A stretch of DNA of 64,000 bases from a virus (IMGVR_UViG_3300036834_000211:32001-96000); one strand, 5' to 3'; shown: positions 9,448 to 36,356, counted from the first letter of the stretch. A program made the numbers and translations. The notes: a model not told the origin generated them from the letters alone.

Positions 9448-10209
9448 GTGAACCTGCACAGCATCGTCGCGCCCGTCGTCGGGGCCGTCAACGAGAATCA
9501 GATCGTCACGCTGATGCAGAATGTGAGATTCGTGACGAACGTCGACTTCTCGCGCTCTCCCGTCTACTCGACGTTCCGGATGAGGGCGCAGGTGCAGGGT
9601 CTGCAGTCCGACGACATCCGGGTCCTCAACGGCCTGGGCATCCAGGGAGAGCGCCGGAAGGTCTACCTGTGGGGGGCGTGGACCGGCATGGTCCGCAGCC
9701 TGCAGAAGGGCAACGACCTGATGATCCGCCCCGACGGCAGCCTGTGGAAGGTGGCCCACGTGTTCGAGGACTACGGGCACAACCTCGTCGGCACGGGTGG
9801 GTGGTGCAGCGTCGCTGCCGTACTGCAGAACCCGACGAGCGAGGACTACTACGTACCGAGACCACCAGGGCCAGATGACGTGACAACCATAAGCCTGACT
9901 TCCAGCTACAACGTGGCGTTCGCGGACAGCGGGACGTACTTCGACAACGACGCGGTCTCCGTACCGATCACCGCGACGCTCCCGCCGCCGTCGCCGGGTC
10001 TGAACTACCACTTCACCGTCACTAGCGCGCAGCTCTTCCAGATTAAGGCGTCGGCCGGGGTCTCGATAGCGATCGGTACGGTGGAGAGCGTGCCGGGCGG
10101 CAGCCTGAGCTCCAATTTTCTGTACTCGTCGGTCTACATCTACGCGCCGTCGGGAGTGAGTAACCAGTGGGTCGCCGAGAGCGAGACAGGAGGATGGGAT
10201 GTTAACTAG
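9448..10209 (+). CDS. Head-closure (stopper)-like protein with extra C-terminal beta domain
   Basis: 'MNLH.IV...V.AVN', 'AQVQ.L...D.....GL.IQG'; likely GTG start 9448 (ORF open from 9385); ~110-aa C-terminal extension. Confidence 0.7.
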   Translation: MNLHSIVAPVVGAVNENQIVTLMQNVRFVTNVDFSRSPVYSTFRMRAQVQGLQSDDIRVLNGLGIQGERRKVYLWGAWTGMVRSLQKGNDLMIRPDGSLWKVAHVFEDYGHNLVGTGGWCSVAAVLQNPTSEDYYVPRPPGPDDVTTISLTSSYNVAFADSGTYFDNDAVSVPITATLPPPSPGLNYHFTVTSAQLFQIKASAGVSIAIGTVESVPGGSLSSNFLYSSVYIYAPSGVSNQWVAESETGGWDVN

Positions 10210-11008
10210 CAAGATGAGGGTACTGCGGGCCGCGGGCGCGGTACTCGCGCTGGTACTGGCCCCCCTGGGGGCAGACGCGGCCACGTCGCTCGTGGGTCCG
10301 ATCCAGACCTACTCCTGCACGAATCAGGTGGCGACGGCGCTCGCCTCGGGCACCGCCGCGACGACCTGCTCGAACGTTACGGCAGCCATGTTCGGCTCGG
10401 CCATCGGTGCGGGCACGCTCTTCGGGAATCCGACGGGCTCAGCCGGGGCTCCGAGCTTCACGGCCGCGCCGGTCCTCGGCGTTGCCTCGACCACCGCCGG
10501 CACCCTGGGCCTCGCCAGCTCGACGCAGTCCGGGATCGTGCAGTTGGAGAACACGGGTGCCACCGCGTCCTGGCACCTGGACTTCCCGGCTACCGCCGGC
10601 TCCTCCAACGGCCAGGTGATGACGTGGCAGGGCGTCGACACCCCAATGACGTGGCAGAGCGTCGCGCTCGCCGCGGTGCCTATCCTCGTCGAGACGACGG
10701 GACCGGTGACGCTGACCAGCGCCCTCGACCGGACGGTATTCTACACGACTACCGCCGCCGTGACGTTTAACCTGACCGGCTCGGTAGTAGCCGGCGACAA
10801 CTGGTGCTTCGTCCAGACCTCCTCCAACGCCTGGACCCTCGCGGCCAACAGCGTTACCGGCATGACGATCACGGTGGCCAACTCTCCCGGTACCGCCACG
10901 ACGGGTACGCTGGTGTCGGGGGCGGCTGGCAGCCTGGTCTGCATCGACATGATCACGGCGACCAACGCCCAGGCGTACACGAGCAACGGCGCTGTGACGA
11001 ATAACTGA
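10199..11008 (+). CDS. Signal-peptide-bearing fibre-like structural protein
   Basis: N-term MRVLRAAGAVLALVLAPLGADA; Thr/Ala/Gly-rich with 'GNPTG....P.F' fibre-like motif. Confidence 0.6.
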   Translation: MLTSKMRVLRAAGAVLALVLAPLGADAATSLVGPIQTYSCTNQVATALASGTAATTCSNVTAAMFGSAIGAGTLFGNPTGSAGAPSFTAAPVLGVASTTAGTLGLASSTQSGIVQLENTGATASWHLDFPATAGSSNGQVMTWQGVDTPMTWQSVALAAVPILVETTGPVTLTSALDRTVFYTTTAAVTFNLTGSVVAGDNWCFVQTSSNAWTLAANSVTGMTITVANSPGTATTGTLVSGAAGSLVCIDMITATNAQAYTSNGAVTNN

Positions 11009-11520
11009 TGCGATACTCCCTATCCTACTGCCTGCTGGTCCTAGTCATCGTGTGGGGCGTAGGCGCGCACGCGCAGCAGCAGCCCCCGGGACAGGACATG
11101 TGCGCCGGACCCCTCCCGTACCAGGCCGACGCCCTCGTCGACCAGCGATTTCGGCTCCAGTGCTCCATCCAGAAGCTCATCGCCGAGCGAGCCGACGCCG
11201 AGAACCGCGCGACCGCCGCGGAGGTTCAGACCTCGGTCGAGGCGGCACACGCCAAGGCCCAGACGGACGCGCTCGACGCGGCGAATAAGAAATCCGCCGA
11301 GACGAGCGAGTACTGGAAGTTATACGTCGAGGGAGCCGACGCGCAGATAGTCGAGGACAACGAGAAGATCAAGGAGCTGTCCACCGAACTCTCCGAGGCC
11401 AGGAAGCGAGTTGAGATGTATACTCCGAGATTGACGTCGGCCGTCGACGCGTCGTGCTCCTGGCGCGGAGCGCTCAACGAGCCCACCGCGAGGATGTGTA
11501 GACTGTGGCAGAAGAGATGA
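11008..11520 (+). CDS. Signal-peptide coiled-coil protein
   Basis: Hydrophobic leader ending AHA; helical body with Cys pairs. Confidence 0.6.
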   Translation: MRYSLSYCLLVLVIVWGVGAHAQQQPPGQDMCAGPLPYQADALVDQRFRLQCSIQKLIAERADAENRATAAEVQTSVEAAHAKAQTDALDAANKKSAETSEYWKLYVEGADAQIVEDNEKIKELSTELSEARKRVEMYTPRLTSAVDASCSWRGALNEPTARMCRLWQKR

Positions 11521-12404
11521 GTTCAAGATTGCGCGGCGCGCTCGCCCTCCTCTGCTCCCTCCTCTGCTCCCTCCTCTGCTCCCTCGCGTGGTCGATCGCG
11601 TGGTCGATCGCGTCGGCCAGCGCCGGGACGTTCGTGTCCGGCCCCGCCGTCCTCGGCATCCAGAACACTCTGTCGGCGTGGAGCAGCGCTACGACGGTCA
11701 ACTCGACGCAGACCATCTTCTCGTCAGCCGGAGCTGCCGTCGCCGTTGTCCAGACCGACACTACATCTACGGTGACCGGGGGCGCGATTAGCTTCCAGGT
11801 GTCCTACGACGGCACGAACTGGGTTACCGTCGCTGCGGATCAGGTCCTCGACCCGGCTTCTGCTAACCTCGCGCAGATCTCGCTCCCCTACACGCTAGTT
11901 GCGAGCACGAACAAGACGTTCCTGATCCTGCCGCACGGCGCGCAGGGATTGCGGATCATCCTGACGACCGCGATCACCGGCACCGCCACGCTGACGCCGT
12001 ACTACGCGCTCTCCGGCACGCCCGGAGTCTACGAGGTAATCGATCCGGCCAACACCGCGGCCAACCCCGACTACGTCGCCCCGGGGACCGGGCAGACCTT
12101 CCCGATCGGCCCGCCGCCAGCCGCCGCCCGCAACACGCCGGGCTGCACGGTAGGCACGTCCTCGGCCCAGTGCCTCGCGGCGTCCACCGCCGTCTCCTTC
12201 CTGCAACTCCAGAACACTTCCGCGTCTGCTAACATCGCCTGTAACATCGTCGGCGGCACCGCCGTGCTCAACAGCAGTACCTCCGTCCAGCTCGGGGCCG
12301 GTCAGTCGGCGAGCTGGGGCGAGGGTACCGGGGGAGTTCCGTCCGGTGCGATCAACTGCATAGCTAGCGCCGCGTCCACGCCGCTCTACGTGGAGTGGAA
12401 GTGA
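11517..12404 (+). CDS. Signal-peptide beta-sandwich structural protein
   Basis: Leader ending ASA; 'FQVSYDGTNW' jelly-roll-like motif; C-terminal Cys-containing domain. Confidence 0.6.
   Translation: MSSRLRGALALLCSLLCSLLCSLAWSIAWSIASASAGTFVSGPAVLGIQNTLSAWSSATTVNSTQTIFSSAGAAVAVVQTDTTSTVTGGAISFQVSYDGTNWVTVAADQVLDPASANLAQISLPYTLVASTNKTFLILPHGAQGLRIILTTAITGTATLTPYYALSGTPGVYEVIDPANTAANPDYVAPGTGQTFPIGPPPAAARNTPGCTVGTSSAQCLAASTAVSFLQLQNTSASANIACNIVGGTAVLNSSTSVQLGAGQSASWGEGTGGVPSGAINCIASAASTPLYVEWK
11545..11613 (+). repeat. Tandem 12-bp repeats inside a signal peptide
   Basis: (ccctcctctgct)x3 encodes (LLCS)x3, then (cgcgtggtcgat)x2 encodes (AWSI)x2. Confidence 0.9.
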
Positions 12405-13363
12405 TGCCGCGCTCGATCGTCCTTGCCGTCCTCCTCTGCTCAGTGGCGGCGAGCGCTCTTGCCCAGATCGGACCGCCCCCCGGTGGGGGAGGCAGTGGCA
12501 TCTCGGGCCTGACGAACAACGTCGTGCCGAAGTCGAACTCCGCGGGGACTAACATCGTCAACGGGGCGGCTACCGACACGGGCAATACGTTCCAGGTCGC
12601 CGAGGGAGCCCTCGAGACCCCGGTCGCCCTCACCGACGGCTCGACGGTCGCGGTCAACTGCTACCTGTCGAACAACTTCACACTACAGCTCACGGCTAGC
12701 GGACACACGATCTCGAATCCGACCAACTGCACGGCCGGACAGCGACTCGACTTTCTGGTGCAGCAGCCGGCGTCCGGCGGACCCTACACGGTGTCGTGGG
12801 GCGCGGCCTACGTGTGGGTCGCCAGCGCCCCGGTGCTCAACACCGGCGCGAGCGCCTACACCGAAGCGGTGTGTAAGATCACTGCCACGACCCCGACAAT
12901 GATCTGCTACGCCCATGTCAACGGGGCCACCGGTGCGGCGTCAGTCGCGGCCCCTGCCGCGCCCGCGAGCACGTCTGCGTACCAGGCCCAGGGACTGTCG
13001 AGCGGTACCACGATCATCACACCTGTGACGACTGGCAACGTGGCGGTCACGATCTCGGGCACCTGCGAGACGACGGTGACGACGGTGACGGACGGCGCCC
13101 AGTTCTACATCATGCACGGGACCGGCAACGGAAACGCGAACGGCTCGACGACCCTCGGGACGCAGGACGGATCGGTCGAGCCGTGCCAGCCTGGTACGAC
13201 CCTGACGGCTGCGGCGGACTGGAAGTCACCCTGGTCGAAGACCTGGGTGGTGACGGGGCTGACGGTCGGGACCGCGTACTACTTCGACCTCGCCGGAGAG
13301 GCGATAGGGGCGTCGGCGGTCAAGCTCGTCAATGTGGACGTCGCCGCTTACGAGATCCAATGA
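12404..13363 (+). CDS. Signal-peptide tail-fibre-like protein
   Basis: Leader ending ALA; 'LTDG.T.AV.....NNF...LT....T..NPTN...GQ......Q...GG..T..WG..Y.W' tail-fibre domain motif. Confidence 0.65.
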   Translation: MPRSIVLAVLLCSVAASALAQIGPPPGGGGSGISGLTNNVVPKSNSAGTNIVNGAATDTGNTFQVAEGALETPVALTDGSTVAVNCYLSNNFTLQLTASGHTISNPTNCTAGQRLDFLVQQPASGGPYTVSWGAAYVWVASAPVLNTGASAYTEAVCKITATTPTMICYAHVNGATGAASVAAPAAPASTSAYQAQGLSSGTTIITPVTTGNVAVTISGTCETTVTTVTDGAQFYIMHGTGNGNANGSTTLGTQDGSVEPCQPGTTLTAAADWKSPWSKTWVVTGLTVGTAYYFDLAGEAIGASAVKLVNVDVAAYEIQ

Positions 13364-15132
13364 AGAAGCTATTTTTCTGTCTCTTGATGCTCTTCGTCGC
13401 GACCTTCGTCGTGGCCTTAGTCGACGTCGCGACCATGCCGGGATCTCGCGCCATCCTGATCGCCGGCGGTGGGGGAAGCGGTGGAGGAACAAGTACCATA
13501 ACTGGATTGTCCCTGTCGAGTACGACTTACACGTCAAGTACAGCGGGGACCAATGTAGGAACTCTTACTCTCGCAGGAACGAACAATGGTACGGCAACCT
13601 ACACGCTGAGCGGTCCGGACGCGGCGAGGTTTCAACTCAGCTCGTCCTGCACAGGGGCGTCGTGCAGCCTTCAGGCCAGCGGTAGCGAGCCAGACGGATT
13701 CCACGATGGTCGTTTTCTGGTGTTCGTTACGCCGACACTCGCCGGCGCAAGAGGAAGCGGCGTCGTTTATCCTTTTACTGTCAACGAGACAGTCACTTGT
13801 AATCAAACGGTTACGACAGGCTTCGCCGCATCGAACATCACGAGCGCCATAGCCGCCGCGAGCGCCGGACAGAACATCTGCATTCAGGGCAGCGGGACTG
13901 TAGCTAGTAACGTGGCGGTCAACAAGGGCGTTCGAATCACGGGAGTCAACAGTACCTCTAACCCATCGATCACGGTATCGGGGCAGATAGTCGCGTTCAA
14001 CGTCACCGCCAATGCGGCTCAGATCGACCATTTGACGGCGTCCGGAACGATACCAGGGTCGCCAGCGACGAACGTTTGCAATAGCACGCTGTCTGGCTTC
14101 GTCAGCACAGGCACAGGCATCAGCGGCTTCACCGCCACGTACAACAAGACCAGCTCCTTCATGTGCGACTACGTGTACGGCGACACGACGACTGGATTGA
14201 GTGGTTTGGTGCACAAGTACAACTACAGCTCTGGCAGCGGGTACGTCGGGGTGGCGTGTGACATCTGCGTGGGAGGCAGCAACGTCGTCAACAACAATAC
14301 TTGGAAAGATGGCGCCCCCGCCACTGGCGAGGTCAATCTATATCCATTCGCCATAAGTGGAGACGCAATATCGGTGGGGGTGTCGTTTACGAATAACATC
14401 GTGATCAATAATACTCTCTGGGAGTGCTACGACGCACACGGTGGTACGGACATCTACTGGACCAGCAACTATGCGTTGGCGTGCAATGCTCACGGCAACA
14501 GCTCGGCCTTGGCCGTGGGTCCAATCTCAGGGCGGAATGCGACTCGCGATCGGGTCAACAGCAATTACATCGACGCGGGAACAGCCGGCAGCTGTTGCGA
14601 CGCGATCGTTGATGAGGCCGTCTCGGGAACCTCGCTGATCTGCACTGGTGGAGACGGACAAGGCTGCCAAGTCGAGAACAACACCGCTTTGGTCAGTGGC
14701 GCGTCCTGCTCCGGCTGGATCTTGACGGGAGCCGCCGGCGGCACGTTGACGGGCACGCAGACCGTGAGCGGAAATGTCTGTACTGGCGCTCCGGCGACGA
14801 TGGCCGCTCCGGTACTGACGACCGATCAGCCGTCGAACGGGTTTGTGGCCGGCCAAGCGAATGGAGTCATCGGCAAGATCACGGTGGCGATGACGCCGGC
14901 ATTTCCTGCGTGGGTAGGTAGCTGGCCATACGCCAGTGGCTGGCCAGGGACATTCTCAGTCGGCGGCACAAATTCCGGGGGTTTCGTGATTTGCGTCGAT
15001 GGCCAGCACCTTTGTCAGAGTGCCACCGGAACGCCGGCAGGAACCTATAATGATTTTACGATCACCGGCACCTTGACTGGGCTCAGCAACTCGCCGCAGA
15101 CATCCGGTACACAGACCGTGACGGGCACTTAA
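13360..15132 (+). CDS. Large Cys-rich adhesin/tailspike-like protein (cadherin/Ig-like plus right-handed beta-helix) with N-terminal hydrophobic leader
   Basis: MKKLFFCLLMLFVATFVVALV; 'TYTLSGPDAARF' cadherin-like; Asn-ladder repeats. Confidence 0.6.
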   Translation: MKKLFFCLLMLFVATFVVALVDVATMPGSRAILIAGGGGSGGGTSTITGLSLSSTTYTSSTAGTNVGTLTLAGTNNGTATYTLSGPDAARFQLSSSCTGASCSLQASGSEPDGFHDGRFLVFVTPTLAGARGSGVVYPFTVNETVTCNQTVTTGFAASNITSAIAAASAGQNICIQGSGTVASNVAVNKGVRITGVNSTSNPSITVSGQIVAFNVTANAAQIDHLTASGTIPGSPATNVCNSTLSGFVSTGTGISGFTATYNKTSSFMCDYVYGDTTTGLSGLVHKYNYSSGSGYVGVACDICVGGSNVVNNNTWKDGAPATGEVNLYPFAISGDAISVGVSFTNNIVINNTLWECYDAHGGTDIYWTSNYALACNAHGNSSALAVGPISGRNATRDRVNSNYIDAGTAGSCCDAIVDEAVSGTSLICTGGDGQGCQVENNTALVSGASCSGWILTGAAGGTLTGTQTVSGNVCTGAPATMAAPVLTTDQPSNGFVAGQANGVIGKITVAMTPAFPAWVGSWPYASGWPGTFSVGGTNSGGFVICVDGQHLCQSATGTPAGTYNDFTITGTLTGLSNSPQTSGTQTVTGT

Positions 15133-15953
15133 TGGCGATTACGCACGTTAATGGCGTAATTGGCGCTGATGGTTCAGCCACCGGAGCGACCAGCGGCACT
15201 GCGCCGTCTTTCACTGCCTCGGCCGGCAATCTCGTCTGTGGCGGAGTGACGTTTAGTAACGCCACCAATGTCTTGACATCGGTCAAGATTGGCTCACTTA
15301 TAGCGACGCTTGGAACAGCAATAAACAATACCAACAATGCGACATTTTTAGTACCATATCATTTTCCTGGCTCAATTCTTACGGGGGGTGCCGCAGTAAT
15401 CACCGCGGCATTCTCCGCGGCCGTCACCTACATAAGGATCATAGGCGACGAATTTGCGGGCGTTCAGGTAAGCTCGCCGCTCGATCAAGCGACTGGCCAG
15501 TATCAGCCGGCGCCATCTGGGGGTCCCTCGTCCGGCAACGTCACGCCGCTGCACAATGGAGAACTGATCTACGGCATCGTCGACGACGGCTCGCAGGGCG
15601 GCGGAACGTGGACGGCGGGCAGTGGCTTCACGCTGCTCGAACAGAATGCCAGCGGCAATGCCGTTACGATGGCGAGTGAGTGGCGGGTGCAAGCCACCGC
15701 TGCCGCGATAGCCGCAACGTTCACCGAGAGCTTCGGCAATACTACGGACAGTTTCGAAACCGCGATCATGACATTCCAGGCGGCGGCCTCTAGCGCTTCT
15801 AGTAGAGGTTGCATCAAGGGGTCAATCTTGCTATTCGGTTGCGGCATCTGGGCGGCAAAGAAGATCGAGAAGAATGAGATCGTCACTAGGCGGTCTCTCA
15901 TCTTGCCAGGTCGCCGAGGTCTGATCGACCACAACGGCGGTCCCTCCCGATGA
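15132..15953 (+). CDS. Beta-rich virion/receptor-binding-type protein
   Basis: Ala/Thr/Gly-rich, 'EF.GV....PLDQ', lower GC than neighbours. Confidence 0.55.
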   Translation: MAITHVNGVIGADGSATGATSGTAPSFTASAGNLVCGGVTFSNATNVLTSVKIGSLIATLGTAINNTNNATFLVPYHFPGSILTGGAAVITAAFSAAVTYIRIIGDEFAGVQVSSPLDQATGQYQPAPSGGPSSGNVTPLHNGELIYGIVDDGSQGGGTWTAGSGFTLLEQNASGNAVTMASEWRVQATAAAIAATFTESFGNTTDSFETAIMTFQAAASSASSRGCIKGSILLFGCGIWAAKKIEKNEIVTRRSLILPGRRGLIDHNGGPSR

Positions 15954-23945: not shown

Positions 23946-25190
23946 ATGCGCAGCCGACTCGGTCTCCTCCTCACGATCCTCCTCGTGCTCTCGCCCGCCG
24001 CGGCGAGGGCCCAGACCGCGTGCACGGTTCTCCCCCAGTCGTCCCTGCTCAATCTGTTCTCCGACGCCGCGCCGGTGGCCTCGATCGTCCCTGCCTACGT
24101 GCGCAACGCGATCTGTAGCTCTCTCAATCCGACGAATAATCTCTCGGACGTGGCGTCGCAGCAAACGTCGATAAATAATCTATTCGGACCTAATACTTAT
24201 TTGAAGATCCTGGGTAGTGGGGCATTATCCGTTCCGTCATATACATCATTGTCCACGCAGGGGACTCTGTCGGGAACGCCTGCGGGATCTTCGATTGATG
24301 TCAATTATGGGTCTACGACGCCACTCTCGACCATAGCAGTAATCAGCGATACTGCGACGAATCAGCTGTTGGGAGGAGTAATACCAGCTCTCAGCATAGC
24401 TCACACGTTTGGCGGTACTGGAGCCGGTCCAGGCGCTCGACAGGGGATTTTTGTTGATCTTGTCCAAAATGGAAATGTCGGTTCCGGTACGGGAGCCTTT
24501 CAAACTGGGATCTTTTCGAATGTGTGGGCCAGGAGCGGAACCGGCGGCGGCCAATTCTACGCCTATGCAGGACAAGTAATCGACGACCTAAACGTCTCTC
24601 ACTATGGTACGGTCGGTGGCGAGATCGACTTGGCATTGCACCAGCCTGGGGCTGGGATCAAAGAAGGATGGGCGGTTGCGTCCACCCCGTTGGGGAGCGG
24701 GAACGACACACAGCAAGGTACCAACTATTCGGCCGGCTATGGGCTGTGGGCCGGCGGCTCGTGCGGGAATGGTGCACTCGCCGGGGGGAGCGCCTGCGCC
24801 GGCTTCAACACAGGCATTTCGTTCGGCCGCTCCGATAGTTACTGGCCCATTTCCAACGCCGGTACGGTGATCGCCGCAACGCAAGGGGTCGGCACGATTG
24901 GTAATATGAAGGCGGCGCAGGGCATCGACATGCACAACGTCACCTTCAGCACTTACGCGCTGAATTTCCCTGGATTCCAAGTCACTGGCGACGGCAGCCT
25001 ATTTGCCGGCGGCGCATCGGGTCTCGGCGTGGCTAAGCAGTCGAGTGGTCCGGGTGCTGGACCGGGCGCCGCGGTCGTCAGGATAATTGCATTGCCGGGC
25101 ACAACGGGAGGCACCTGCAAACTGGTGGCCTATGCCGGCACGAGCACCACGGGTGTGCTCTTGGCTGATAACATTGGTAGCGGGTGCTGA
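23946..25190 (+). CDS. Signal-peptide Gly-rich fibre/spike-like protein
   Basis: Leader ending AARA; 'NNLSDVAS.......NL' fibre motif; Gly-rich beta repeats. Confidence 0.6.
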   Translation: MRSRLGLLLTILLVLSPAAARAQTACTVLPQSSLLNLFSDAAPVASIVPAYVRNAICSSLNPTNNLSDVASQQTSINNLFGPNTYLKILGSGALSVPSYTSLSTQGTLSGTPAGSSIDVNYGSTTPLSTIAVISDTATNQLLGGVIPALSIAHTFGGTGAGPGARQGIFVDLVQNGNVGSGTGAFQTGIFSNVWARSGTGGGQFYAYAGQVIDDLNVSHYGTVGGEIDLALHQPGAGIKEGWAVASTPLGSGNDTQQGTNYSAGYGLWAGGSCGNGALAGGSACAGFNTGISFGRSDSYWPISNAGTVIAATQGVGTIGNMKAAQGIDMHNVTFSTYALNFPGFQVTGDGSLFAGGASGLGVAKQSSGPGAGPGAAVVRIIALPGTTGGTCKLVAYAGTSTTGVLLADNIGSGC

Positions 25191-26792: not shown

Positions 26793-27532
26793 GCGACGCC
26801 GACACCTACGCCTATGTGGGGGCCCAGGATGCCGGCACCACCGTACATCCATTCAATACTACGGACTTCCACATCGACCAGGCCATCGCCGACGTCCGTA
26901 CGGCTCAGTACGCGAAGGTGATTCGGGGCGCCTACGACGCTAACGGAAACGACATCCCGCCAGGTACCATAGGACCGATAGGCTTCGTCGACGTCCAGCC
27001 GCTGGTCAACCAGGTGGACGGCAACAACGGGAACTCCACACCACACGGGACGATCTATAAGATCCCATACTTCCGGTACCAGTCCGCGCTCGGCGCGATC
27101 ATCTCGAACCCGAAGAAGGACGACATCGGGGAGATCATCATGCACGATCGGGACACCAGCGTCGTTCGGGCTACGGGAGCCCAGGGAAACCCGGGGTCGA
27201 GAAGACGGCACGACTTTGCTGATGCCGTATTTCACGGCTCGCACATTGACACCGGGACACCAACCCAGGGAGTAGCCTTCTCAGATACTGGCGTAAAGAT
27301 ATTCGACAAGAACCACAATACGGTCACGCTGGCCAACAACCTGATCACGATCAAGGTCGGAAATGCAACCTACACGTTCGATCAGAACGGGCTCTTTACA
27401 GCTAGTGGGAATGTTATTGCGGGCCAGGGCGGGTCGGATCAAGTGACGTTACAAGGACATCAGCATACTCAACCTAATGATAGTCATGGAGATACAGAAC
27501 AACCTACGAATGCTCCTACCGCAGGTACTTAG
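26789..27532 (+). CDS. Baseplate central spike (Gp138-like N-terminus)
   Basis: 'VDVQPLV.Q.D', 'PY.R.Q', 'P...D.G.....DRD.S', 'PGS.RRHD.AD', C-terminal HxH metal tip. Confidence 0.85.
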   Translation: MSDADTYAYVGAQDAGTTVHPFNTTDFHIDQAIADVRTAQYAKVIRGAYDANGNDIPPGTIGPIGFVDVQPLVNQVDGNNGNSTPHGTIYKIPYFRYQSALGAIISNPKKDDIGEIIMHDRDTSVVRATGAQGNPGSRRRHDFADAVFHGSHIDTGTPTQGVAFSDTGVKIFDKNHNTVTLANNLITIKVGNATYTFDQNGLFTASGNVIAGQGGSDQVTLQGHQHTQPNDSHGDTEQPTNAPTAGT

Positions 27533-27536
27533 GCGT

Positions 27537-27655: not shown

Positions 27656-28225
27656 ATGAACACCCTCGCCCTTTCCACCCCCGACCAGGACGGCACCGGC
27701 TGGGACCTGGTCGTCGAGAACGGCACCCTCAAGGTGAACTCCGGTGGTATCGCACTCGCACAGGATGTGGCAAGCGCCGTCCGCACGTTCCGAGGTGAGT
27801 GCTGGTACGACTCGACGCTCGGCGTGCCGTACTTCCAGAACATCCTCGGCCTCCGCGTTAGCCTGCAGTTTCTGAAGCAGGCGCTTGTGACGGCTGGGCT
27901 GGTCGTCCCCGACGTGGCCTCGATCAAGTGCTTCCTGACCGGGCCGGGCTCGGGCCGAGAGATCGGTGGTCAGCTCCAGATCACCAGCTCGAGTGGGCAG
28001 GTCTCGGTGGTCGAGACCGGAAACCTGCTCGGCGTCGCGCCGTGGTGGGTGAGTGCGGTCTCGGGAGACATTGCCGCAACTCCTCCGATGGCCGGTGGAA
28101 GCGACTTCGGACCGCCGGACTTCGGACCGCCGGACTTCGTCCAAGGTGATGCTACTGCAACTCAGACTGTACTCACCGGAGGCGGGGTCCCACTTACGGG
28201 AGGGGGTAAGGTATTGACACAATGA
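27656..28225 (+). CDS. Baseplate wedge/sheath initiator protein with C-terminal repeat tail
   Basis: 'WDL....G.L......A.AQDVASA.RTF.GE.WYD.T.GVPY'; tail with DFGPP repeats. Confidence 0.8.
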   Translation: MNTLALSTPDQDGTGWDLVVENGTLKVNSGGIALAQDVASAVRTFRGECWYDSTLGVPYFQNILGLRVSLQFLKQALVTAGLVVPDVASIKCFLTGPGSGREIGGQLQITSSSGQVSVVETGNLLGVAPWWVSAVSGDIAATPPMAGGSDFGPPDFGPPDFVQGDATATQTVLTGGGVPLTGGGKVLTQ

Positions 28226-29937
28226 GGATCATCCTGCGCATCCTCGCCGCGTTCCTGGGTGCCGTCGCGGCTAGTCACTTGGCCCACTCGCAGCAGCAGG
28301 AGATAGAGGCGTACGTGTACGGCCAGTCCCAGGCGACTCAGCCGTACTCATCGGGTCTACTCATCCCGGCAATCCCCAACCCCAATCGATTCTCCCTGCT
28401 CAGCATTCCGGCGAATGCCTTCCTGTACACCAGTGGCGTGCCCAACGCTCCCTTCCTGAGCGGATCTGGTGGCGGCTTCCAGGGATTAACGGGATCTGCG
28501 GCGACGGCCCTACTCTCCCCCTGTACCTCGACGGTCCAAGGGGTCGTCCCCACCCCGCCGAACGATGCCACCAAGTTCCTAAATGGGAAGTGCTCGTTCG
28601 CTTCCTCCGGCTCCGTAAGTCCGGACGTCATGGGCGCCCCGCACAACGGGACGTCCGACGACTCGTCAGGCTTCAGCGCAGCGCTGGCGACCGGTATTCC
28701 GGTTCAGATGGTGTGCAACGGTACTCCCTACAAGCTGACGAGTAACGTCATCATAGCCACCCCGGCGCACCTGATGGGCTGCGGGACGATCCTGGGGTCC
28801 CCGATCAATCTATCCGGTGCGTCCGCGGGAATAACCATAACGTCGAGCGGAGTGATCGTCGAGAACGTCCACGAGGTCGGCGATCGCACTACTGGGCAAG
28901 TCGGCATAAAACTGACCGGCGGCAGCCGAGACCTCGTCCGCAATGTCCAAGTCGAGTTGGCCGACATCTGCTTCCAGCAGGGCGTGGGGGCCGGAGTAAT
29001 CAACAACTGGGAGCACATCTATGGCAGGAACTGCAAGAGCATCTTCGCGACCTTCCAGGACGGTATAGGACCGATCATCGACGAGGCACTTTACGACACC
29101 GACGTGGGCTCATACGCGGATCCCCAGGGTATAGTAGTCGAGACGGAGGGTGTATTCATGACCAGGGCCGACATCCTGGACACCACGTACCCGCTCATAA
29201 TACAGTGCAACGGGGCTCACCACGCGAACGGTCCGATATGGGGGGAGTACGGGCTCAACTTCTTCGACATCTCACAGCAAGGGGTCTTGATCACCAACCA
29301 GTCCGGTGGGGGATGTTCCGTGAGGGGAGAGCACTTCCACGGGACGTGGTTTGCCACCTCCACGAACAATGGTCTGACTGTCACTACCGACTCGCTGAGC
29401 AGCATCCAGACCGTGCTGTGCGACGGGTGCCAGATTCACAATAATGGGGCCCATGGCGTCAGTCTATCGGGTAACTCCAACGACATCATCTTCAACGGCT
29501 CCATAATCTCCGGGAACGGGAGCGCGAGCGGCAGCGCCTACGACAACGTCAAGATAGCCACCACCGCCCCGCTGGACACCATCGTGTTCAACGGTGGTAT
29601 AATTGGTAGGGCGGAGGGCGAGACCGCGCTTCCCAAGTACAACTTGGAGATAACGACTCCGTCGTACGTCCGGATAACCGGGACGTACTTCGATGTGGGT
29701 GGGGTGACAACCGCGAACATCGTGAACCCCGGAGGTGCCAACATACAGACGGACGGTCTCTCCGGATTCGAGACTACGGCATCGACGCTCGGTCCCTGCA
29801 CAACTGGCAACGCCGGGAACAGGACGTCGATATCCGACGCGACGTCGGGGACGTTCGGAGCCCCCGTGGGAAGTGGGGGCTCCCACCACGTACTGGCATA
29901 CTGCGACGTATCGGTATCTGGTTGGGTAGTCCATTAG
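28222..29937 (+). CDS. Signal-peptide tailspike/pectate-lyase-like beta-helix protein
   Basis: Hydrophobic leader; 'GA..NG..DDS..F..A' pectate_lyase_3-type start; parallel beta-helix repeats. Confidence 0.7.
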   Translation: MRIILRILAAFLGAVAASHLAHSQQQEIEAYVYGQSQATQPYSSGLLIPAIPNPNRFSLLSIPANAFLYTSGVPNAPFLSGSGGGFQGLTGSAATALLSPCTSTVQGVVPTPPNDATKFLNGKCSFASSGSVSPDVMGAPHNGTSDDSSGFSAALATGIPVQMVCNGTPYKLTSNVIIATPAHLMGCGTILGSPINLSGASAGITITSSGVIVENVHEVGDRTTGQVGIKLTGGSRDLVRNVQVELADICFQQGVGAGVINNWEHIYGRNCKSIFATFQDGIGPIIDEALYDTDVGSYADPQGIVVETEGVFMTRADILDTTYPLIIQCNGAHHANGPIWGEYGLNFFDISQQGVLITNQSGGGCSVRGEHFHGTWFATSTNNGLTVTTDSLSSIQTVLCDGCQIHNNGAHGVSLSGNSNDIIFNGSIISGNGSASGSAYDNVKIATTAPLDTIVFNGGIIGRAEGETALPKYNLEITTPSYVRITGTYFDVGGVTTANIVNPGGANIQTDGLSGFETTASTLGPCTTGNAGNRTSISDATSGTFGAPVGSGGSHHVLAYCDVSVSGWVVH

Positions 29938-29948: not shown

Positions 29949-31229
29949 ATGGTTAGACTCCTCAAGTACTTCTGCACCATTGTCGTACTCGCCACTGCCA
30001 CACAGGTGCAGGCTCAGACTATTAAGACGCAGTCGGCGCTGATAACCGAGTGGCAGCCCTGCTCTGTGCTCGGTCAGCCAAGCGCGTGCCACGGCAGCTC
30101 GACGCAGATTCAGGACATCATTCAGTCGGTGGCTCCCTGGGCGTGGACGCTCAGTCCGAGCGGGCCGATCCCGTCGGCTCTGCTCTCCCCCTGCACTACG
30201 ACGGTCCAGGGGGCCGTACCAGCGCCGCCGAACGATGCCACCAAGTACCTCAACGGACAGTGTCAGTGGTCGGGGTTGGCGATTGAAGCTCCTAACTACA
30301 CGAATCCGTCTGGAGGATTGAATGGAGGATTTCGGGTTGAAAATATCGCTACTCTAGCACCGAGTAACCCTGGGGTAAACAATGCGATTAGCATCTCGGC
30401 GTTCATCGATAATCTGAATGGCCGTGGGTCGGGGGGTACATTGGCAAACCCTCAGCTCATCGAAGCGATAAATCCGCTCTGCAATCAGTTCGCTGTCGCC
30501 CAAGGAGGGTCGGTATCGGACGTACAGTGCGTCGAGAGTGATGTACTTCAGAGCTTCGCGCCAACTAATGTCGATGAGCCGTTCAATGCGAACTCTCCGA
30601 CAGTTTTTGCCTACTCGGCGACCGCCGAACGCAATACTACAGGAGCGACGCCACAGCGGCCAAATGGCGCCTACATGGTGGTATCGGCCAACACTGCGAA
30701 CACCAACGATTGGTTTGCTTATGGACTTGTCCTCAGCCGAGTACAATATGAAGGGATTAGGATCGAGGATTTCCCACTCGACACGCTCCACGGCTTCACT
30801 CATGCAGCCATCTCCGATTATAGCAACTCTGCGCGAGTGCTGAATATTAAGGGCACGCACGCGACTGCCATTGTCGACATGAGTGGGGAGGTTGGCATAC
30901 CAAATTTCATCCTAGGACCCTCTAGCGTAAGTGCGAATTTCGTGGTGGCGAATAGCGCAAATTTTAACACCGAGTGGAGTGTGGACTCCGGTGGTACCGC
31001 CGCGGAGTTCTCAATAATGGGATGGCGCGACCGCGGCGCAGAAGAGTATCAAATACTGAAGAACGCGTCCAACAACTTGCAATTTGTCGACTTTGTCCAC
31101 ACTGTGACGTTTATGAATTATGTACAATCGACGCAAGTATTGGAGATATCCCACATCCCCACCTCGTGCTCCGGACACCCGTCTGGGACTGAGTGGAATA
31201 ATGCTGGAGTGGTGAATATCTGTCCATGA
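29949..31229 (+). CDS. Signal-peptide fibre/spike-like protein
   Basis: Leader ending QVQA; shares the 'ALLSPCT.TVQG.VP.PPNDATK.LNG.C' module with the previous gene. Confidence 0.6.
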   Translation: MVRLLKYFCTIVVLATATQVQAQTIKTQSALITEWQPCSVLGQPSACHGSSTQIQDIIQSVAPWAWTLSPSGPIPSALLSPCTTTVQGAVPAPPNDATKYLNGQCQWSGLAIEAPNYTNPSGGLNGGFRVENIATLAPSNPGVNNAISISAFIDNLNGRGSGGTLANPQLIEAINPLCNQFAVAQGGSVSDVQCVESDVLQSFAPTNVDEPFNANSPTVFAYSATAERNTTGATPQRPNGAYMVVSANTANTNDWFAYGLVLSRVQYEGIRIEDFPLDTLHGFTHAAISDYSNSARVLNIKGTHATAIVDMSGEVGIPNFILGPSSVSANFVVANSANFNTEWSVDSGGTAAEFSIMGWRDRGAEEYQILKNASNNLQFVDFVHTVTFMNYVQSTQVLEISHIPTSCSGHPSGTEWNNAGVVNICP

Positions 31230-32662
31230 GCGACGGCTTCGTCACCGCCGTCCCCCAGCCGACCTTCGGTCCGAGGGGGGTCGTCCTCCCGACCGAAGAC
31301 GCGGCGCTCGCCGGCGTCCAGGTCGACATCAATGCTGCACTCGGCGGGGGCATCAACCCGCAGCTGACGAATCCGACGGGACAGATTGCGGTCACCGAGA
31401 CCGCGGTCATCGGCGACAGCTGGGCGCAGCTTGCGTGGTTCTTCTCTCAGATAGATCCGGCGCTCAACTCCGGTCGCGGTCAGGACGCGATCGGCCGCAT
31501 CTACTTCCAGGACCGGATCTCGGCGCAGCCGACCGTCCAGCCGTGCACCTGCGTCGGCCTTAACACCACGCCGATCGGCGTCGGCTCCCAGGCGCGGGAT
31601 CCCAACACGGGCCTGATCTGGCTCTGTACGCAGGCCGGCGAGATCGGGGTGTCCGGATCGGTCACGCTGGAGTTCTCCTGCGGGACGAGCGGCCCGATCG
31701 CCGCCCCGGCGAGCTTGAACATCTACCAGCAGATCTACGGGTGGGAGAGCGTCACACCGAGTGGACCGGCAGTGCTCGGGAACCTCGTCGAAACCCCCAC
31801 CCAGTACGAGCTCAGGCGGCAGCTCTCGGTCGCAGCCAACGCCATTCAGATACTTGACGCGATTCAGGGGACGGTGCTCGCGCTCCCCGGCGTCCTCGAC
31901 TGCTACTGCCTCGAGAACAATCTGCCCACGGTTGCGGTCGTCGGGGGTGTCACGATCGGACCAAACTCGATCTACGTCGCCGTCCTGGGTGGGAGTCAGA
32001 CGGCCATCGCCGCCGCAATTTACTCGAAGAAGGGACCGGGCTGCGGCTACAACGGCAATACCTTCACGACGGTCCCGGACCCAAATCCCGCCTACAACGC
32101 GCCGCCACCGCAGTACAGCGTTGGGTACACGGTTCCGACGATCGTTGCGTTCGTCGTACTCGTCACCCTGAGCAACAACCCGGGCGTACCGTCGAACGCG
32201 CTGGCGCTGATCCAGCAGTCAATCATCAACGCCTTCAACGGTCTTGACAACGGGCCTCGCGCTAAGATAGGCTCGCGCGTGCTCGCCAGTCGGTACTACG
32301 GTGGCGTGGCGTCCCTCGGGTCGTGGGCTCAGATCGTCGGCATCGACCTCGGCGTGCTCGGCAACGGGGCCTCATTCACCGGGTCGATATCCGGCACCAC
32401 CCTGACGGTGTCGACGGTCGCTGGCGGGACCCTGGCAGCCGGCCAGATCATCCAGGACGCTGGGGTCGTGTCGATGGGGACGTTGATCCAGTCTCAGTTG
32501 CCCGGTGGCACGCCGGGGGGCGTGGGGACGTACCAGGTTAGCATATCTCAGACCGTGACCCCCGAGTTGATGACGACGACCACCCTCGTGGACTCCACGA
32601 CGATGAACATCAACCAGGTCCCGGCCGTGTCCGCTCTAAACATAAATTTAATATTGGTATAA
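31226..32662 (+). CDS. Baseplate J-like wedge protein
   Basis: 'T.VP..TF...G...P.E...L.GV..D.NAA.GG', 'DP....GR.QDAIGRIYF..R', 'G...ET...YE.RR..SV'. Confidence 0.9.
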   Translation: MSDGFVTAVPQPTFGPRGVVLPTEDAALAGVQVDINAALGGGINPQLTNPTGQIAVTETAVIGDSWAQLAWFFSQIDPALNSGRGQDAIGRIYFQDRISAQPTVQPCTCVGLNTTPIGVGSQARDPNTGLIWLCTQAGEIGVSGSVTLEFSCGTSGPIAAPASLNIYQQIYGWESVTPSGPAVLGNLVETPTQYELRRQLSVAANAIQILDAIQGTVLALPGVLDCYCLENNLPTVAVVGGVTIGPNSIYVAVLGGSQTAIAAAIYSKKGPGCGYNGNTFTTVPDPNPAYNAPPPQYSVGYTVPTIVAFVVLVTLSNNPGVPSNALALIQQSIINAFNGLDNGPRAKIGSRVLASRYYGGVASLGSWAQIVGIDLGVLGNGASFTGSISGTTLTVSTVAGGTLAAGQIIQDAGVVSMGTLIQSQLPGGTPGGVGTYQVSISQTVTPELMTTTTLVDSTTMNINQVPAVSALNINLILV

Positions 32663-33194: not shown

Positions 33195-33878
33195 ATGAAG
33201 AACTGGCGGCAGACGGTCCAGTCGGAGTACGCCAGTAGCCCGCGCCTGATGTCGCTGCTGACCGCGATCGAGGCGTGGCTGTCGCCGGACGCCAACTACG
33301 AGAACTTCTACCAGCTAGTCTGGAACGTCGACCAGGCCGCCGCAAACGACTCCACCTACGGCCTCGACGTGTGGGGTAGGATCGTCAACATTCCCAGGAC
33401 CGTGACGATCGCCGGCGGTGCCCCGACGTTCGGCTTCGGCGAGGCCGGCGACAGGGTCGGCTTTGGTCAGGGCCCGTTCTACGAGGCGTCCATCGGGGTC
33501 ACCGAGAACTTCGTGCTCGCCAACTCGGTCTACTACCAGCTCATCCTGGCGAAGGCAGCGTACAACATTACGAACGGTTCGACGCAGGCGATAAACGCCC
33601 TATTGATGAACCTGTTCGTCGCCCGCGGTAACTGCTGGGTGACCGACGGTCGCAACGTCCCTGGATCAACGTCGTTCGGCTTCGGCGAGGCTGGCGACCG
33701 GGTGGGCTTCGGCCAGGGGCCGTTCGGAGATCTGATCTACTCCACGCTGCCGGAAAACATGACGCTGACCTACGTGTTCACATTCCCGCTCGCGCCGTTC
33801 GAGAAGGCAATCGTCACATCTGGCGTTCTGCCCAAGCCAACCGGCGTGCTGGCAACCTGGGCATTCCTCGGGGGTTAG
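33195..33878 (+). CDS. Baseplate wedge protein (DUF2612 family)
   Basis: 'T..S.YA.SP.L', 'GLDVWGRIV.I.R', duplicated 'FGFGEAGDRVGFGQGPF', 'LPKPTGV'. Confidence 0.85.
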   Translation: MKNWRQTVQSEYASSPRLMSLLTAIEAWLSPDANYENFYQLVWNVDQAAANDSTYGLDVWGRIVNIPRTVTIAGGAPTFGFGEAGDRVGFGQGPFYEASIGVTENFVLANSVYYQLILAKAAYNITNGSTQAINALLMNLFVARGNCWVTDGRNVPGSTSFGFGEAGDRVGFGQGPFGDLIYSTLPENMTLTYVFTFPLAPFEKAIVTSGVLPKPTGVLATWAFLGG

Positions 33879-33884: not shown

Positions 33885-34586
33885 GTGCAGCTCAGCCAAA
33901 TCCCGACCAAGTTCCCGGCCGTCTGGGCACACGGCGCCGTCGCTCCGTACATCAACACGATCCCGGCGCCCTCCCAGCAGAGCGTCAGGAGCGGCGCGGC
34001 GAGTCTCTTCGACGGCTTCCCGCCGTTGTGCTTCGTGCCGATCGCGACCGGTGGTGCCGGGCCGTTTGGTGGGGATACCAACGGCATCCTCAACCAGATA
34101 ACCGGTGGCCTGCAGTGGCAGCAGGCCGGAGCCCCGTTCACATTCGACCCCGCGTGGGCCGCAGCTGTCGGTGGGTACCCGCTGGGCTCGCTGATCCCGT
34201 CGGACTCGACCCCTGGGCAGTTTTGGTACAGCACGGTCGACAACAACTCGGCCGACCCGGACACGGGCGGTGCCAACTGGCTGTCGTTCGCGATGCTGCT
34301 GGGCGGTACGACGAACGCACAGATCATCCAGACGGGACGCTCCCCCGCGATCAACCTGTCGGGTGGGGTCGGGCAGGTCACGACTCCATTCCCGAACGCC
34401 TTTCCTCACGCCTGCCTCGGAGTGATCGGCTGGGCCGATGGTATTGACCCGTTCGTAGTGGGTTCCGCGGTGGTCTTCGCAGGCAACACCTACACAGCCT
34501 CCAACTTCAACCTACTGGCGGCTACCCCAGCACAGCCCACCAGTACTGCGACGGTGCACGCCATCTTCGTAGCGGTAGGATACTAA
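33885..34586 (+). CDS. Short tail fibre (baseplate-anchoring N-terminus plus small C-terminal domain)
   Basis: 'AS..DGFPPL...PIA.GG..P.G.D.NGIL', 'GGYP.G', 'W.ST.DNN...PD'; 'FPNAFP.AC' C-domain. Confidence 0.8.
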   Translation: MQLSQIPTKFPAVWAHGAVAPYINTIPAPSQQSVRSGAASLFDGFPPLCFVPIATGGAGPFGGDTNGILNQITGGLQWQQAGAPFTFDPAWAAAVGGYPLGSLIPSDSTPGQFWYSTVDNNSADPDTGGANWLSFAMLLGGTTNAQIIQTGRSPAINLSGGVGQVTTPFPNAFPHACLGVIGWADGIDPFVVGSAVVFAGNTYTASNFNLLAATPAQPTSTATVHAIFVAVGY

Positions 34587-34588
34587 CG

Positions 34589-35125
34589 ATGACCCAGTAC
34601 GCGTACTTCGACCCGACCAAGCCCGACCCCAAGCCGGTACTCGGCTGGTACGACACGACGTGGGCACACTACCCGAACCTACCCGACGCGTCGAACCTCC
34701 TGGGGATGTCTCAGCAACAGTGGGCGGCGCGCCTGGGGGGCCTCTGGGCGGTGCAGGGTGGTACGCTCGTCCCCTACTCCCCACCGGTGCCGGCTCCATC
34801 ACTCGCGCAGCAGGCGGCGACGATGCTGGCCGGTGGCCTGATGGTATCTAGCTCGGGCGACGGTGCCCTCAACGCGACCTATCCCTGCGACTCACTCACT
34901 CAGCAGCACGTGTCCGCCGAGATCGTCAGCCTACTGCTGAACGGAACGTTCACTGACGGTGCGACGACGATCTCCTGGCTCGACGCAGCGGGGAATGCCC
35001 ACGCGCTCTCGATCGATCAGTACAAGTCCTTGGCGACCGCGCTTGCGGCGTTCGTGACGAGCTGCGTGAGGTGTATCAGCGGCCAGTCGACGACCCTCCC
35101 CTCGAACCAGGCGACGATCCAGTGA
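34589..35125 (+). CDS. Tail fibre assembly protein (DUF4376-like)
   Basis: 'YAYFD.....P.PV.GWYDT', 'W.D..G..H.......L'; follows the fibre gene. Confidence 0.7.
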   Translation: MTQYAYFDPTKPDPKPVLGWYDTTWAHYPNLPDASNLLGMSQQQWAARLGGLWAVQGGTLVPYSPPVPAPSLAQQAATMLAGGLMVSSSGDGALNATYPCDSLTQQHVSAEIVSLLLNGTFTDGATTISWLDAAGNAHALSIDQYKSLATALAAFVTSCVRCISGQSTTLPSNQATIQ

Positions 35126-36033
35126 CGATCGTCCTGCGCGATCCAGCCGGGGAGGACGCCAGCTTCGCGATCAACGCGGCGCTCCAGCAGGCTGCCGTGC
35201 TCGGCGGCAGCGAGGTCGTACTCTCGGCGGGGCGCTATCTGGTGCCGGCGACGTCCAGCATCAGGTGGCCGGCGAACGCCAACGGCGTTAGCCTGATCGG
35301 CGAGGGCCCTCTGGCCTCGGTGATCCAGGCCAAGGGAGGCAGGTACTCCGACCTGCTCGACCTGACCACCGGGAACCTGGCCCACGTCAGGATTGCGGGG
35401 GTCGGGATCTCGGCCCTCGGCGTCATCGGCTCCGGGGCGATGATCCACGCGGCCAACTGCTACGACCTGCTGATCGACCGCGTGCGGCTGGACGGGCCGT
35501 TTAATGACGGCATCGTGATCGACGGCGGACAGAACCAGTACCTCACTACGATCACTTGCGTCACGATGCCGGGGGACCCTCGCTCCTACCGCTGCCTGGT
35601 CATCGGAGAGAGCGGATACCCGCAGGATACGTACATCAACCTGTGCAAGTTCGCCGCGACTCAGTACGGGATATGGGTGCAGAACGCCGGAGGCGTCTAC
35701 CCGTCCTCAACGGAGACTCTCGGCCACGTCCAGCACGGGTTCATCACCTACCCCGGCGGCGGGCAAAATGTCGACTGGGTCCAGGCGACCCAACTCCTCG
35801 CCGACTCGTGCGGGGGAACTGGGATCTACCTCGGATCGGGCGGGGGAGCCGTCCGCGGCGTCTCGCTCTCGAACTCGTGGTCGTCGTCCAACACCAACGG
35901 GGTCGAGATTGCACCGGAGTGCGACGACGTCTGCTTCGACGCCACGACCCGCTTCCTCGCTAACCGCAACCGGTCGGTGATCGACTACGGCGGGACCAAC
36001 GTCAGGATCTCGGCCTGGATGGACAGGCCCTAG
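35122..36033 (+). CDS. Pectin-lyase-fold (beta-helix) depolymerase-like protein
   Basis: 'D...AINAAL......GG..V.L..G.Y', 'V.L.GEG...S.I'. Confidence 0.7.
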   Translation: MTIVLRDPAGEDASFAINAALQQAAVLGGSEVVLSAGRYLVPATSSIRWPANANGVSLIGEGPLASVIQAKGGRYSDLLDLTTGNLAHVRIAGVGISALGVIGSGAMIHAANCYDLLIDRVRLDGPFNDGIVIDGGQNQYLTTITCVTMPGDPRSYRCLVIGESGYPQDTYINLCKFAATQYGIWVQNAGGVYPSSTETLGHVQHGFITYPGGGQNVDWVQATQLLADSCGGTGIYLGSGGGAVRGVSLSNSWSSSNTNGVEIAPECDDVCFDATTRFLANRNRSVIDYGGTNVRISAWMDRP

Positions 36034-36356
36034 TGGACCGGATTACCACCATTCGGTTGAGAAGGCTGGGATGGTGGTGGCTGAGACTGGCCGTTAGCTA
36101 GCTCGGCCTGCTGCTTGTTGATGCCATCGACGTATTCTTTAATCCACTTGTCCTTCGCCGTGACTTGCTCCTGTAGCACCGCCAGTTGGCCCTCGGTCTG
36201 CCCCAGCTTGAACAGTAGCTGGGCGGTGCCTATGTGCTGCTGCGCCTCCGCTGAAAGCGTACTCTGCTGAAGCGTGACCTCCGGGGCGGTCTGGGCATTG
36301 GCCGACCACGCGATGAGCGTGCCGACGCCGGCTGCTAGGATCCTGTCGCGCATCAT
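36030..36356 (-). CDS. Signal-peptide coiled-coil protein
   Basis: Leader ending SANA; RBS GAGGAG; Gln-rich helix. Confidence 0.65.
   Translation of the reverse strand: MMRDRILAAGVGTLIAWSANAQTAPEVTLQQSTLSAEAQQHIGTAQLLFKLGQTEGQLAVLQEQVTAKDKWIKEYVDGINKQQAELANGQSQPPPSQPSQPNGGNPVH

Follow-up and report, generated by a model that had tools for sequence, protein, structure and literature searches.

Fibre- and spike-like proteins with Sec-type leaders in the virion gene module of an uncultured contractile-tailed phage

Tailed phages are understood to fold and assemble their parts in the cytoplasm. Accessory genes for proteins with signal peptides and targets in the host envelope are known among phage tail genes, namely those of morons and receptor-masking proteins such as Lom and Bor of lambda, Llp of T5 and Cor of T1, phi80 and N15; the products are small outer-membrane proteins or lipoproteins, usually encoded by single genes, often with a promoter of their own, and expressed from the prophage. 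For a few signal-peptide proteins of Porphyromonas gingivalis phages, which obey the Bacteroidetes Q-rule, Matrishin et al. (2023, PMC10367356) proposed a role in altering the surface of the host. Exported proteins of phage-like or beta-helical fold are also encoded by bacteria: the MAT fibres of Bdellovibrio bacteriovorus consist of a signal peptide, a conserved next domain, a phage-like beta-helical shaft and variable TNF-like sugar-binding tips, with disulfides (Caulton et al. 2024, PMC10769870), VexL is a periplasmic beta-helix enzyme that degrades capsule in transit (PMC6003464), and WceF is an enzyme with a tailspike-like trimeric fold that is exported by the Tat route (PMC7949094). Here we analyze a stretch of 64,000 nucleotides (the window), bases 32001-96000 of the 114,541-bp IMG/VR virus record IMGVR_UViG_3300036834_000211, a linear genome that is 94% complete. 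Nine open reading frames (ORFs) of this window start with Sec-type leaders, and most of them are packed among the genes of the virion. We propose that they encode exported accessory proteins derived from fibres and spikes, which would act as glycan binders or cutters, either free or located at the cell envelope; taken as a whole, we place this statement about midway between doubt and confidence.

Leaders, cysteines and export

The nine leader-bearing ORFs, together with one leaderless ORF inserted alongside them, are as follows (aa, amino acids; GC3, G+C content at third codon positions).

10199..11008, plus strand: ORF 10199, 269 aa, leader, 4 Cys after the leader; opens a cassette of five leader-bearing genes
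11008..11520, plus strand: ORF 11008, 170 aa, leader, coiled-coil-like body, 4 Cys after the leader
11517..12404, plus strand: ORF 11517, 295 aa, leader, 4 Cys after the leader
12404..13363, plus strand: ORF 12404, 319 aa, leader, 6 Cys after it; then a Gly-rich linker, a beta domain and, at the C-terminus, a TNF/C1q-like jelly-roll knob (predicted)
13360..15132, plus strand: ORF 13360, 590 aa, leader or signal anchor, 18 Cys after the hydrophobic segment
15132..15953, plus strand: ORF 15132, 273 aa, leaderless; closes the inserted cassette; low GC3 like ORF 13360
23946..25190, plus strand: ORF 23946, 414 aa, leader, 6 Cys; between the phrog_1830 tail gene and the baseplate plug gene
28222..29937, plus strand: ORF 28222, 571 aa, 12 Cys; leader, conserved post-leader module, fibre-type repeat and beta-helix (predicted)
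29949..31229, plus strand: ORF 29949, 426 aa, leader, 8 Cys after the leader; GC3 0.62; same insertion as ORF 28222
36030..36356, minus strand: ORF 36356(-), 108 aa, leader, coiled-coil, Pro-rich tail, no Cys

An earlier sequence-only reading of the window had placed Sec-type leaders at these nine starts, and they are present in the sequence at every one of them. Each comprises 1-3 Lys/Arg residues, an uncharged hydrophobic run of 10-18 residues and a small-x-small site, the predicted cleavage sites being ADA, AHA, ASA, ALA, ARA, AHS, VQA and ANA; in ORF 13360 the hydrophobic run is longer (18-20 residues) and the site poorer, leaving it ambiguous between leader and signal anchor. Leaders were called with a rule of our own for this succession of n-, h- and c-regions (n/h/c), not a trained predictor, and by reading the sequences by eye. 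The rule flags 8 of the 9 named ORFs; the leader of the ninth, ORF 36356(-), escapes the rule, yet it is evident to the eye and conserved in a close relative, IMGVR_UViG_3300036834_000217 (G001). Across the genome, 13 of 83 ORFs of at least 150 aa pass the rule, as compared to 0.70 +/- 0.79 in composition-preserving shuffles (maximum 3 in 200) and 1% of internal windows, and all 13 are located in the late arm (Fisher p = 0.003). In Burkholderia phage phiE131, which has the tail module in common with this phage, none of 33 ORFs passes.

The leaders are maintained while their sequence drifts. In three orthologue pairs of this phage (G000) and G001, leader identity is 30-38% as compared to 60-87% in the mature part, with the n/h/c form kept; for ORF 36356(-) the leader has diverged in G001 and the mature part is 87% identical. 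Among homologues drawn from collections of 5.8 and 1.8 billion proteins, leaders are carried by 11 of 14 members of the ORF 12404 family, by the three closest relatives of ORF 28222 and by all 4 close relatives of ORF 23946.

In-frame GTG or ATG codons occur 4-22 codons past the leaders, and one might therefore argue that the true starts lie downstream, or that the ORFs are not genes. A downstream start is, however, unlikely, since it would open coding-like gaps of 70-130 nt in an otherwise gapless operon and would leave unexplained both the conservation of the leaders in homologues from unrelated contigs and the cysteine parity described below, which is seen in leader-bearing members alone and depends on leaving the leader out of the count. 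The start of ORF 10199 overlaps the upstream head-completion gene by 11 nt and is served by a GGAGG ribosome-binding site. Dual starts, with a leaderless second isoform, were considered as well; no ribosome-binding site is found ahead of the internal ATG of ORF 13360. All nine ORFs are real genes, as they have a codon usage that fits the phage, homologues elsewhere and, in two cases, confidently predicted folds. We thus consider an artefact extremely improbable.

That several of the mature proteins contain multiple cysteines had been noted before, and this observation can be extended: the mature parts of the leader-bearing proteins contain 2.24% Cys, as compared to 0.66% in leaderless structural proteins. 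When the leader is left out, 15 of the 16 leader-bearing proteins that contain cysteine have an even number of them; leaderless proteins of the same genome show 25 even and 21 odd counts. The same holds for homologues elsewhere, where even counts are found in 35 of 40 leader-bearing members (binomial p = 1.4e-6) and in 38 of 67 leaderless ones (not significant), the difference between the two groups being significant (Fisher p = 0.001). An even-cysteine bias is said to have been described by Dutton and colleagues in 2008 as a signature of cell-envelope proteins oxidised by the Dsb system. As the leaders are kept despite sequence drift, as homologues carry leaders as well, and as cysteine numbers are even only in leader-bearing members, export and oxidative folding of these proteins appear highly probable. 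This part of the earlier proposal, export and disulfide bonding, is accordingly well supported in silico.

It might be argued that the hydrophobic segments are uncleaved signal anchors which hold inner-membrane, periplasm-facing factors for superinfection exclusion or lysis timing, and phage exclusion proteins of this topology are known. The long run and poor site of ORF 13360 would fit, as would the leader of ORF 11517, the core of which is encoded by two perfect 12-nt tandem arrays of 3.4 and 2.5 copies (11545-11613; LLCS and AWSI repeats); this leader looks recently lengthened, and its length could vary by slippage. However, most leaders are short (cores of 8-14 residues) and possess good small-x-small sites, often followed by Gln, and the large fibre- or enzyme-like bodies are unlike known exclusion proteins, so that signal anchoring seems very unlikely as an explanation for the set.

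Gln follows the predicted cleavage site in 10 of 17 leader-bearing ORFs, which, by the Bacteroidetes Q-rule, may hint at the host lineage; the genome has 61% GC, and its tail module is closest to those of proteobacterial phages. A scan of genome contigs yielded a single Bacteroidetes metagenome-assembled genome and no host assignment. No lipobox was seen in the leaders when read by eye, and protein sizes of 170-590 aa are also unlike those of receptor-masking lipoproteins. Tat export is not favoured, as the leaders are short and no S/T-R-R-x-F-L-K motif was seen by eye.

Predicted folds and family relatives

Searches of Pfam, PHROGs and NCBIfam returned no significant match for any of the nine ORFs, and a sequence search of the PDB gave nothing for ORFs 28222, 13360 and 23946. 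For ORF 28222, a right-handed beta-helix is predicted from a 24-sequence alignment for residues 130-510 (predicted local distance difference test, pLDDT, >90; predicted template modeling score, pTM, 0.72), and the best structural matches are AlgE mannuronan epimerases, tailspikes 2 and 3 of CBA120, the Sf6 tailspike and the polysaccharide lyase RbmB. Structural matches of the C-terminal knob predicted for ORF 12404 include PLTL and BC2L-C, both TNF-like lectins, as well as C1q heads, the binding domain of a cyanophage short fibre and many tail fibres of a viral structure library. ESM Atlas offers a right-handed beta-helix for ORF 13360 as a lead only, and nothing usable for ORF 23946. A fibre-type repeat is common to ORFs 28222 and 29949 and recurs in leaderless fibres, while the other leader-bearing ORFs show short fibre-type motifs only. 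Thus, of the motifs claimed from the sequence alone, the beta-helix stands for ORF 28222 and the tail-fibre likeness, as a fibre-tip knob, for ORF 12404, with ORF 13360 as a lead; the Ig/cadherin motifs were not confirmed by Pfam.

Knobs of the ORF 12404 type are found in 53 IMG/VR loci, the genes of which were predicted with a simple caller of our own. About a quarter of these knob proteins bear leaders, as judged by our rule and by eye, and the rest are ordinary leaderless fibres; likewise, distant relatives of ORF 28222 are leaderless spikes. The leader therefore appears to stand where leaderless relatives of the same families have an ordinary fibre or spike N-terminus. Directly behind the leader of ORF 28222 lies a conserved module of about 65 aa (28222-28500, residues 24-90), which is found in this position in four unrelated leader-bearing proteins as well (P0048, P0051, P0054 and P0066); it could be a docking or anchoring piece. 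The 130 aa following the leaders show no match to leaderless virion proteins among the IMG/VR loci compared.

Such a layout raises the question of whether the proteins are anchored in the outer membrane after export and serve as surface fibres of the infected cell that alter its binding to neighbours, surfaces or incoming phages. The architecture is like that of MAT fibres (PMC10769870), down to the conserved post-leader domain, and the repertoire varies between close relatives. On the other hand, the likeness to MAT fibres is an architectural one, no lipobox was seen by eye, Pfam returned no match to a type IX secretion system (T9SS), PEP-CTERM or autotransporter domain, and little time would remain between late expression and lysis. 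We regard such surface fibres as distinctly improbable.

Genomic setting of the leader-bearing genes

Assignment by PHROGs and Pfam identified a morphogenesis module of a contractile-tailed phage on the plus strand. The order of its genes follows that of phiE131 exactly, gene by gene, and every leader-bearing ORF within the virion module is an insertion into this order. The features that frame the insertions are listed below.

912-2369, plus strand: protease
3654-4769, plus strand: major capsid protein
7360-9167, plus strand: neck proteins
9385-10209, plus strand: core head/neck protein, phiE131 GP012-like; left edge of the first insertion
15950-16735, plus strand: core neck/tail terminator, phiE131 GP013-like; right edge of the first insertion
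17130-19172, plus strand: sheath
19808-20266, plus strand: tube-like protein
21530-23257, plus strand: tape-measure/lytic protein
23254-23934, plus strand: phrog_1830 tail protein
25195-25845, plus strand: baseplate plug
25773-26792, plus strand: hub
26789-27532, plus strand: spike-like protein
27656-28225, plus strand: core gp25-like baseplate wedge; left edge of the third insertion
31226-32662, plus strand: core J/gp6-like baseplate wedge; right edge of the third insertion
33195-33878, plus strand: gpI-like protein
33885-36033, plus strand: leaderless fibre set (tail fibre, DUF4376 protein and a beta-helix protein of 303 aa)
33885-34586, plus strand: tail fibre of this set, leaderless, 233 aa, phrog_12796, Gp53-like C-terminal domain
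34589-35125, plus strand: DUF4376 protein of this set, leaderless, 178 aa, following the ordinary tail fibre
36430-36921, minus strand: sigma-70 region-2 protein, just upstream of ORF 36356(-); its leftward operon and the late operon converge where the latter ends

The first insertion, between the GP012 and GP013 homologues, contains five leader-bearing ORFs and ORF 15132; the second, between the GP019 homologue and the baseplate plug gene, is ORF 23946; and the third, between the gp25-like and J-like genes, comprises ORFs 28222 and 29949. In G001, the gp25-like gene directly abuts the J-like gene, and no homologue of ORF 28222 or 29949 is present anywhere in the 57-kb contig; this contig begins at the spike gene, so that, of the three insertion sites, the comparison covers the third. 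Based on the insertions relative to phiE131, the lack of this pair in G001 and the presence of a leaderless fibre set, we conclude from gene content and order that the leader-bearing genes are accessory cassettes in this phage and not core parts of the particle. At the site of the third insertion, the gp25-like gene has a C-terminal extension that contains, just ahead of ORF 28222, a perfect 15-nt tandem repeat of 2.5 copies (28103-28139), and the gp25-like protein is 189 aa long here as compared to 145 aa in G001.

The tight packing described earlier is evident, as starts overlap or abut the upstream stops. Promoter-like sites (4 as compared to 3.9 expected) and terminator-like sites (7 as compared to 7.6) are not in excess. 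GC3 is 0.62-0.69 in ORFs 13360, 23946 and 29949 and 0.84-0.88 in the four genes of 10199-13363, where it equals that of the core genes (Mann-Whitney p = 0.07). Given the lack of promoter or terminator excess, the overlap of starts and stops and the core-gene GC3 of four members, the leader-bearing genes are not classical morons. The claim that all nine are embedded in the virion operon stands with the exception of ORF 36356(-), which lies on the minus strand downstream of the sigma-70-type gene. An anti-sigma role of the latter was ruled out because only about 5 residues precede its hydrophobic segment. A spanin or lysis role of the coiled-coil ORFs 11008 and 36356(-) was set aside as well, since neither adjoins an endolysin gene or has a lipoprotein partner; a scan of ORFs of 45-250 aa gave no convincing lipoprotein candidate for an o-spanin.

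Further genes of this kind are present in the two arms of the record beyond the window (L059 and L060; other L-labels denote IMG/VR loci). Five consecutive leader-bearing ORFs of 353, 179, 158, 484 and 498 aa (L059:2562-7553) include one with a DUF4376 domain, one with a weak match to GH5 cellulases and, as the last two, a pair of paralogues. Between this DUF4376 protein and the leaderless one at 34589-35125, identity amounts to 45%, and a fibre partner would therefore be supplied to both compartments. In addition, the record ends split one ORF (window 81722-82540 and L059:1-2584), which, joined with the uninterrupted 1033-aa ORF of G001 (L004:12132-15233) as a guide, encodes a single fibre of about 1170 aa that has both a leader and an internal repeat, about 40 aa being missing; the repeat probably broke the assembly. 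In total, there are about 15 leader-bearing fibre- or spike-like genes, which make up roughly a tenth of the genome. Adjoining the five-ORF cluster (L059:7656-11974) are genes for a polytopic membrane protein, a glycosyltransferase-sulfotransferase fusion, a subtilase-like protein and a GH25 endolysin, which could be a phage-encoded set for the modification of surface sugars.

The remaining genome carries replication and DNA-modification genes and no tyrosine integrase was found in the phage, which is therefore probably lytic. tRNA genes were not found in the two arms. Megablast detected no cultured-phage match to 25 kb of the window, and tblastn against cultured phages gave one marginal match for ORF 12404 and none for ORF 28222, that is, no cultured phage with homologues. 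A search with the sheath protein returned no relatives, and a search with the J-like protein only G001. A further feature of the virion region is an insertion domain of about 70 aa, 45-49% identical between copies, that is shared by a minor head protein (2420-3385), the tail terminator (15950-16735), the sheath (17130-19172), the J-like wedge (31226-32662) and an 857-aa protein (window -10675..-8102); it may be a decoration domain that has spread across many virion proteins.

Leader-bearing genes in fibre or tail regions are not restricted to this phage. In L013, a related phage, the same slot between neck and sheath is occupied by leader-bearing ORFs of 783 and 857 aa. In an unrelated Mu/P2-like locus (L009), the hub gene is followed by wedge W, a leader-bearing insertion and then wedges J and I; the tail-fibre slot comes next and encodes a leader-bearing protein of 1579 aa with 28 Cys, ahead of a lipoprotein-like ORF and the endolysin gene. 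No leaderless fibre was found between the baseplate genes of L009 and the endolysin. Two podovirus-like loci (L032 and L034) contain five to seven consecutive leader-bearing ORFs in the fibre region. Judged from these four loci, leader-bearing fibre-like proteins are general among uncultured phages. A full-text search of the literature, in which most subscription-journal papers were not included, revealed no description of Sec leaders on homologues of tailed-phage tail fibres or tailspikes, so that this absence is not proof; the closest report is that on the P. gingivalis phages (PMC10367356).

Candidate roles and known counterparts

The sequence-only reading had suggested that the proteins mature in the periplasm and become appendages of the virion, and the genomic setting speaks to this in both directions. 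Exported, disulfide-bonded fibres or spikes would dock on finished particles either in the lysate or once the inner membrane has been breached by the holin. Consistent with this, translation of the genes is coupled to that of neck and baseplate genes, promoters or terminators are not in excess, the DUF4376 fibre partner exists in both compartments, the largest fibre-like protein of the phage bears a leader, the post-leader module of the ORF 28222 family could be the docking piece, the leader-bearing genes of L013 occupy the same slot, and L009 has a leader on the protein in the tail-fibre slot and no leaderless fibre ahead of the endolysin. However, all of the genes in question are insertions here, with one pair missing in G001 and a leaderless fibre set at hand; the leader occupies the N-terminus where leaderless relatives have ordinary fibre or spike N-termini; the regions following it have no similarity to leaderless virion proteins of the loci compared; there are no homologues in cultured relatives; and dilution upon lysis would make late docking inefficient. 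We consider virion attachment unlikely, though not remote. A broader version, in which accessory fibres and spikes, and elsewhere even the protein of the main tail-fibre slot, would be Sec-exported, oxidised in the periplasm together with an exported DUF4376 partner and joined to particles after holin action, appears unlikely too. Remodelling of the surface of the infected cell, which had been put forward as the alternative, is at least as likely as virion attachment.

We favour exported proteins that act on glycans, either free or at the envelope. They are accessory, show no recognizable N-terminal anchor and are accompanied by surface-sugar enzymes (the GH5-like ORF and the glycosyltransferase-sulfotransferase fusion), and VexL and WceF provide a precedent; for these reasons this explanation is preferred. 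According to this proposal, the proteins would be produced from the late operon together with those of the virion, pass unfolded through SecYEG and lose their leaders; folding, and probably trimerisation, would follow in the periplasm, where every cysteine would find a partner. The TNF/C1q-like knob would bind glycans, and the beta-helices and the GH5-like enzyme outside the window would cut them. From the periplasmic side, the proteins might cut or mask polysaccharide on the surface of the infected cell. Having folded in the periplasm, they would moreover be stabilised by disulfides and suited to extracellular life, so that stable enzymes and lectins may persist after release at lysis. Possible benefits include the freeing of progeny, prevention of sticking to debris, a block to superinfection and the stripping of neighbouring cells.

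Several points weigh against the proposal. Export is itself read from sequence. A Sec leader reaches the periplasm only, and no signal for secretion across the outer membrane was found. Long fibrous shafts, one within a protein of about 1170 aa, are unneeded for a free enzyme. The four genes of 10199-13363 have the GC3 of core genes and are thus long-standing residents, and leader-bearing fibre-like genes also occur in the neck-to-sheath slot of L013 and the tail-fibre slot of L009.

If the proteins act freely, phages would make a large and so far unrecognised class of lectins and depolymerases that act on the envelope and are built for stability outside cells, with a bearing on host range, biofilm release and the use of such enzymes as tools. 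If they are joined to the particle, assembly would need a second compartment, a route undescribed for any tailed phage, and the Sec and Dsb systems of the host would help to determine how infective the phage is. In many uncultured phages, members of these families are found, some with a leader and some lacking one, and annotation pipelines that label such genes 'tail fibre' overlook the leader.

Compared with known systems, the body of ORF 28222 and the knob of ORF 12404 are predicted to share the folds of leaderless tailspikes and fibre tips (TSP2 and TSP3 of CBA120, Sf6, the binding domain (CBD) of the cyanophage short tail fibre and C1q-like knobs), but differ from them in the Sec leader, the frequent, even-numbered cysteines and the position in insertions instead of the resident fibre. 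In contrast to Lom, Bor, Llp and Cor, they belong to a set of about 15 large fibre- or enzyme-like proteins that have no lipobox and no excess of promoters or terminators, in a phage in which no tyrosine integrase was found. With the signal-peptide proteins of P. gingivalis phages they have in common phage-encoded Sec leaders that expose an N-terminal Gln (here at 10 of 17 sites); those proteins, however, are few, have no assigned function, belong to temperate phages and have not been described as fibre- or spike-like. VexL and WceF are similarly exported beta-helix enzymes that act on the polysaccharide of the cell's own surface, but are encoded by host genes in polysaccharide loci, whereas here the genes are those of a phage, the leaders are of Sec type and the activity is a predicted one. 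MAT fibres are analogous in architecture, with a signal peptide, a post-leader domain, a beta-helical shaft and a variable tip, and likewise occur as many paralogues per genome; their genes, however, are those of a bacterium, which uses the fibres as a predator, whereas the proteins described here are encoded in the late operon of a phage.

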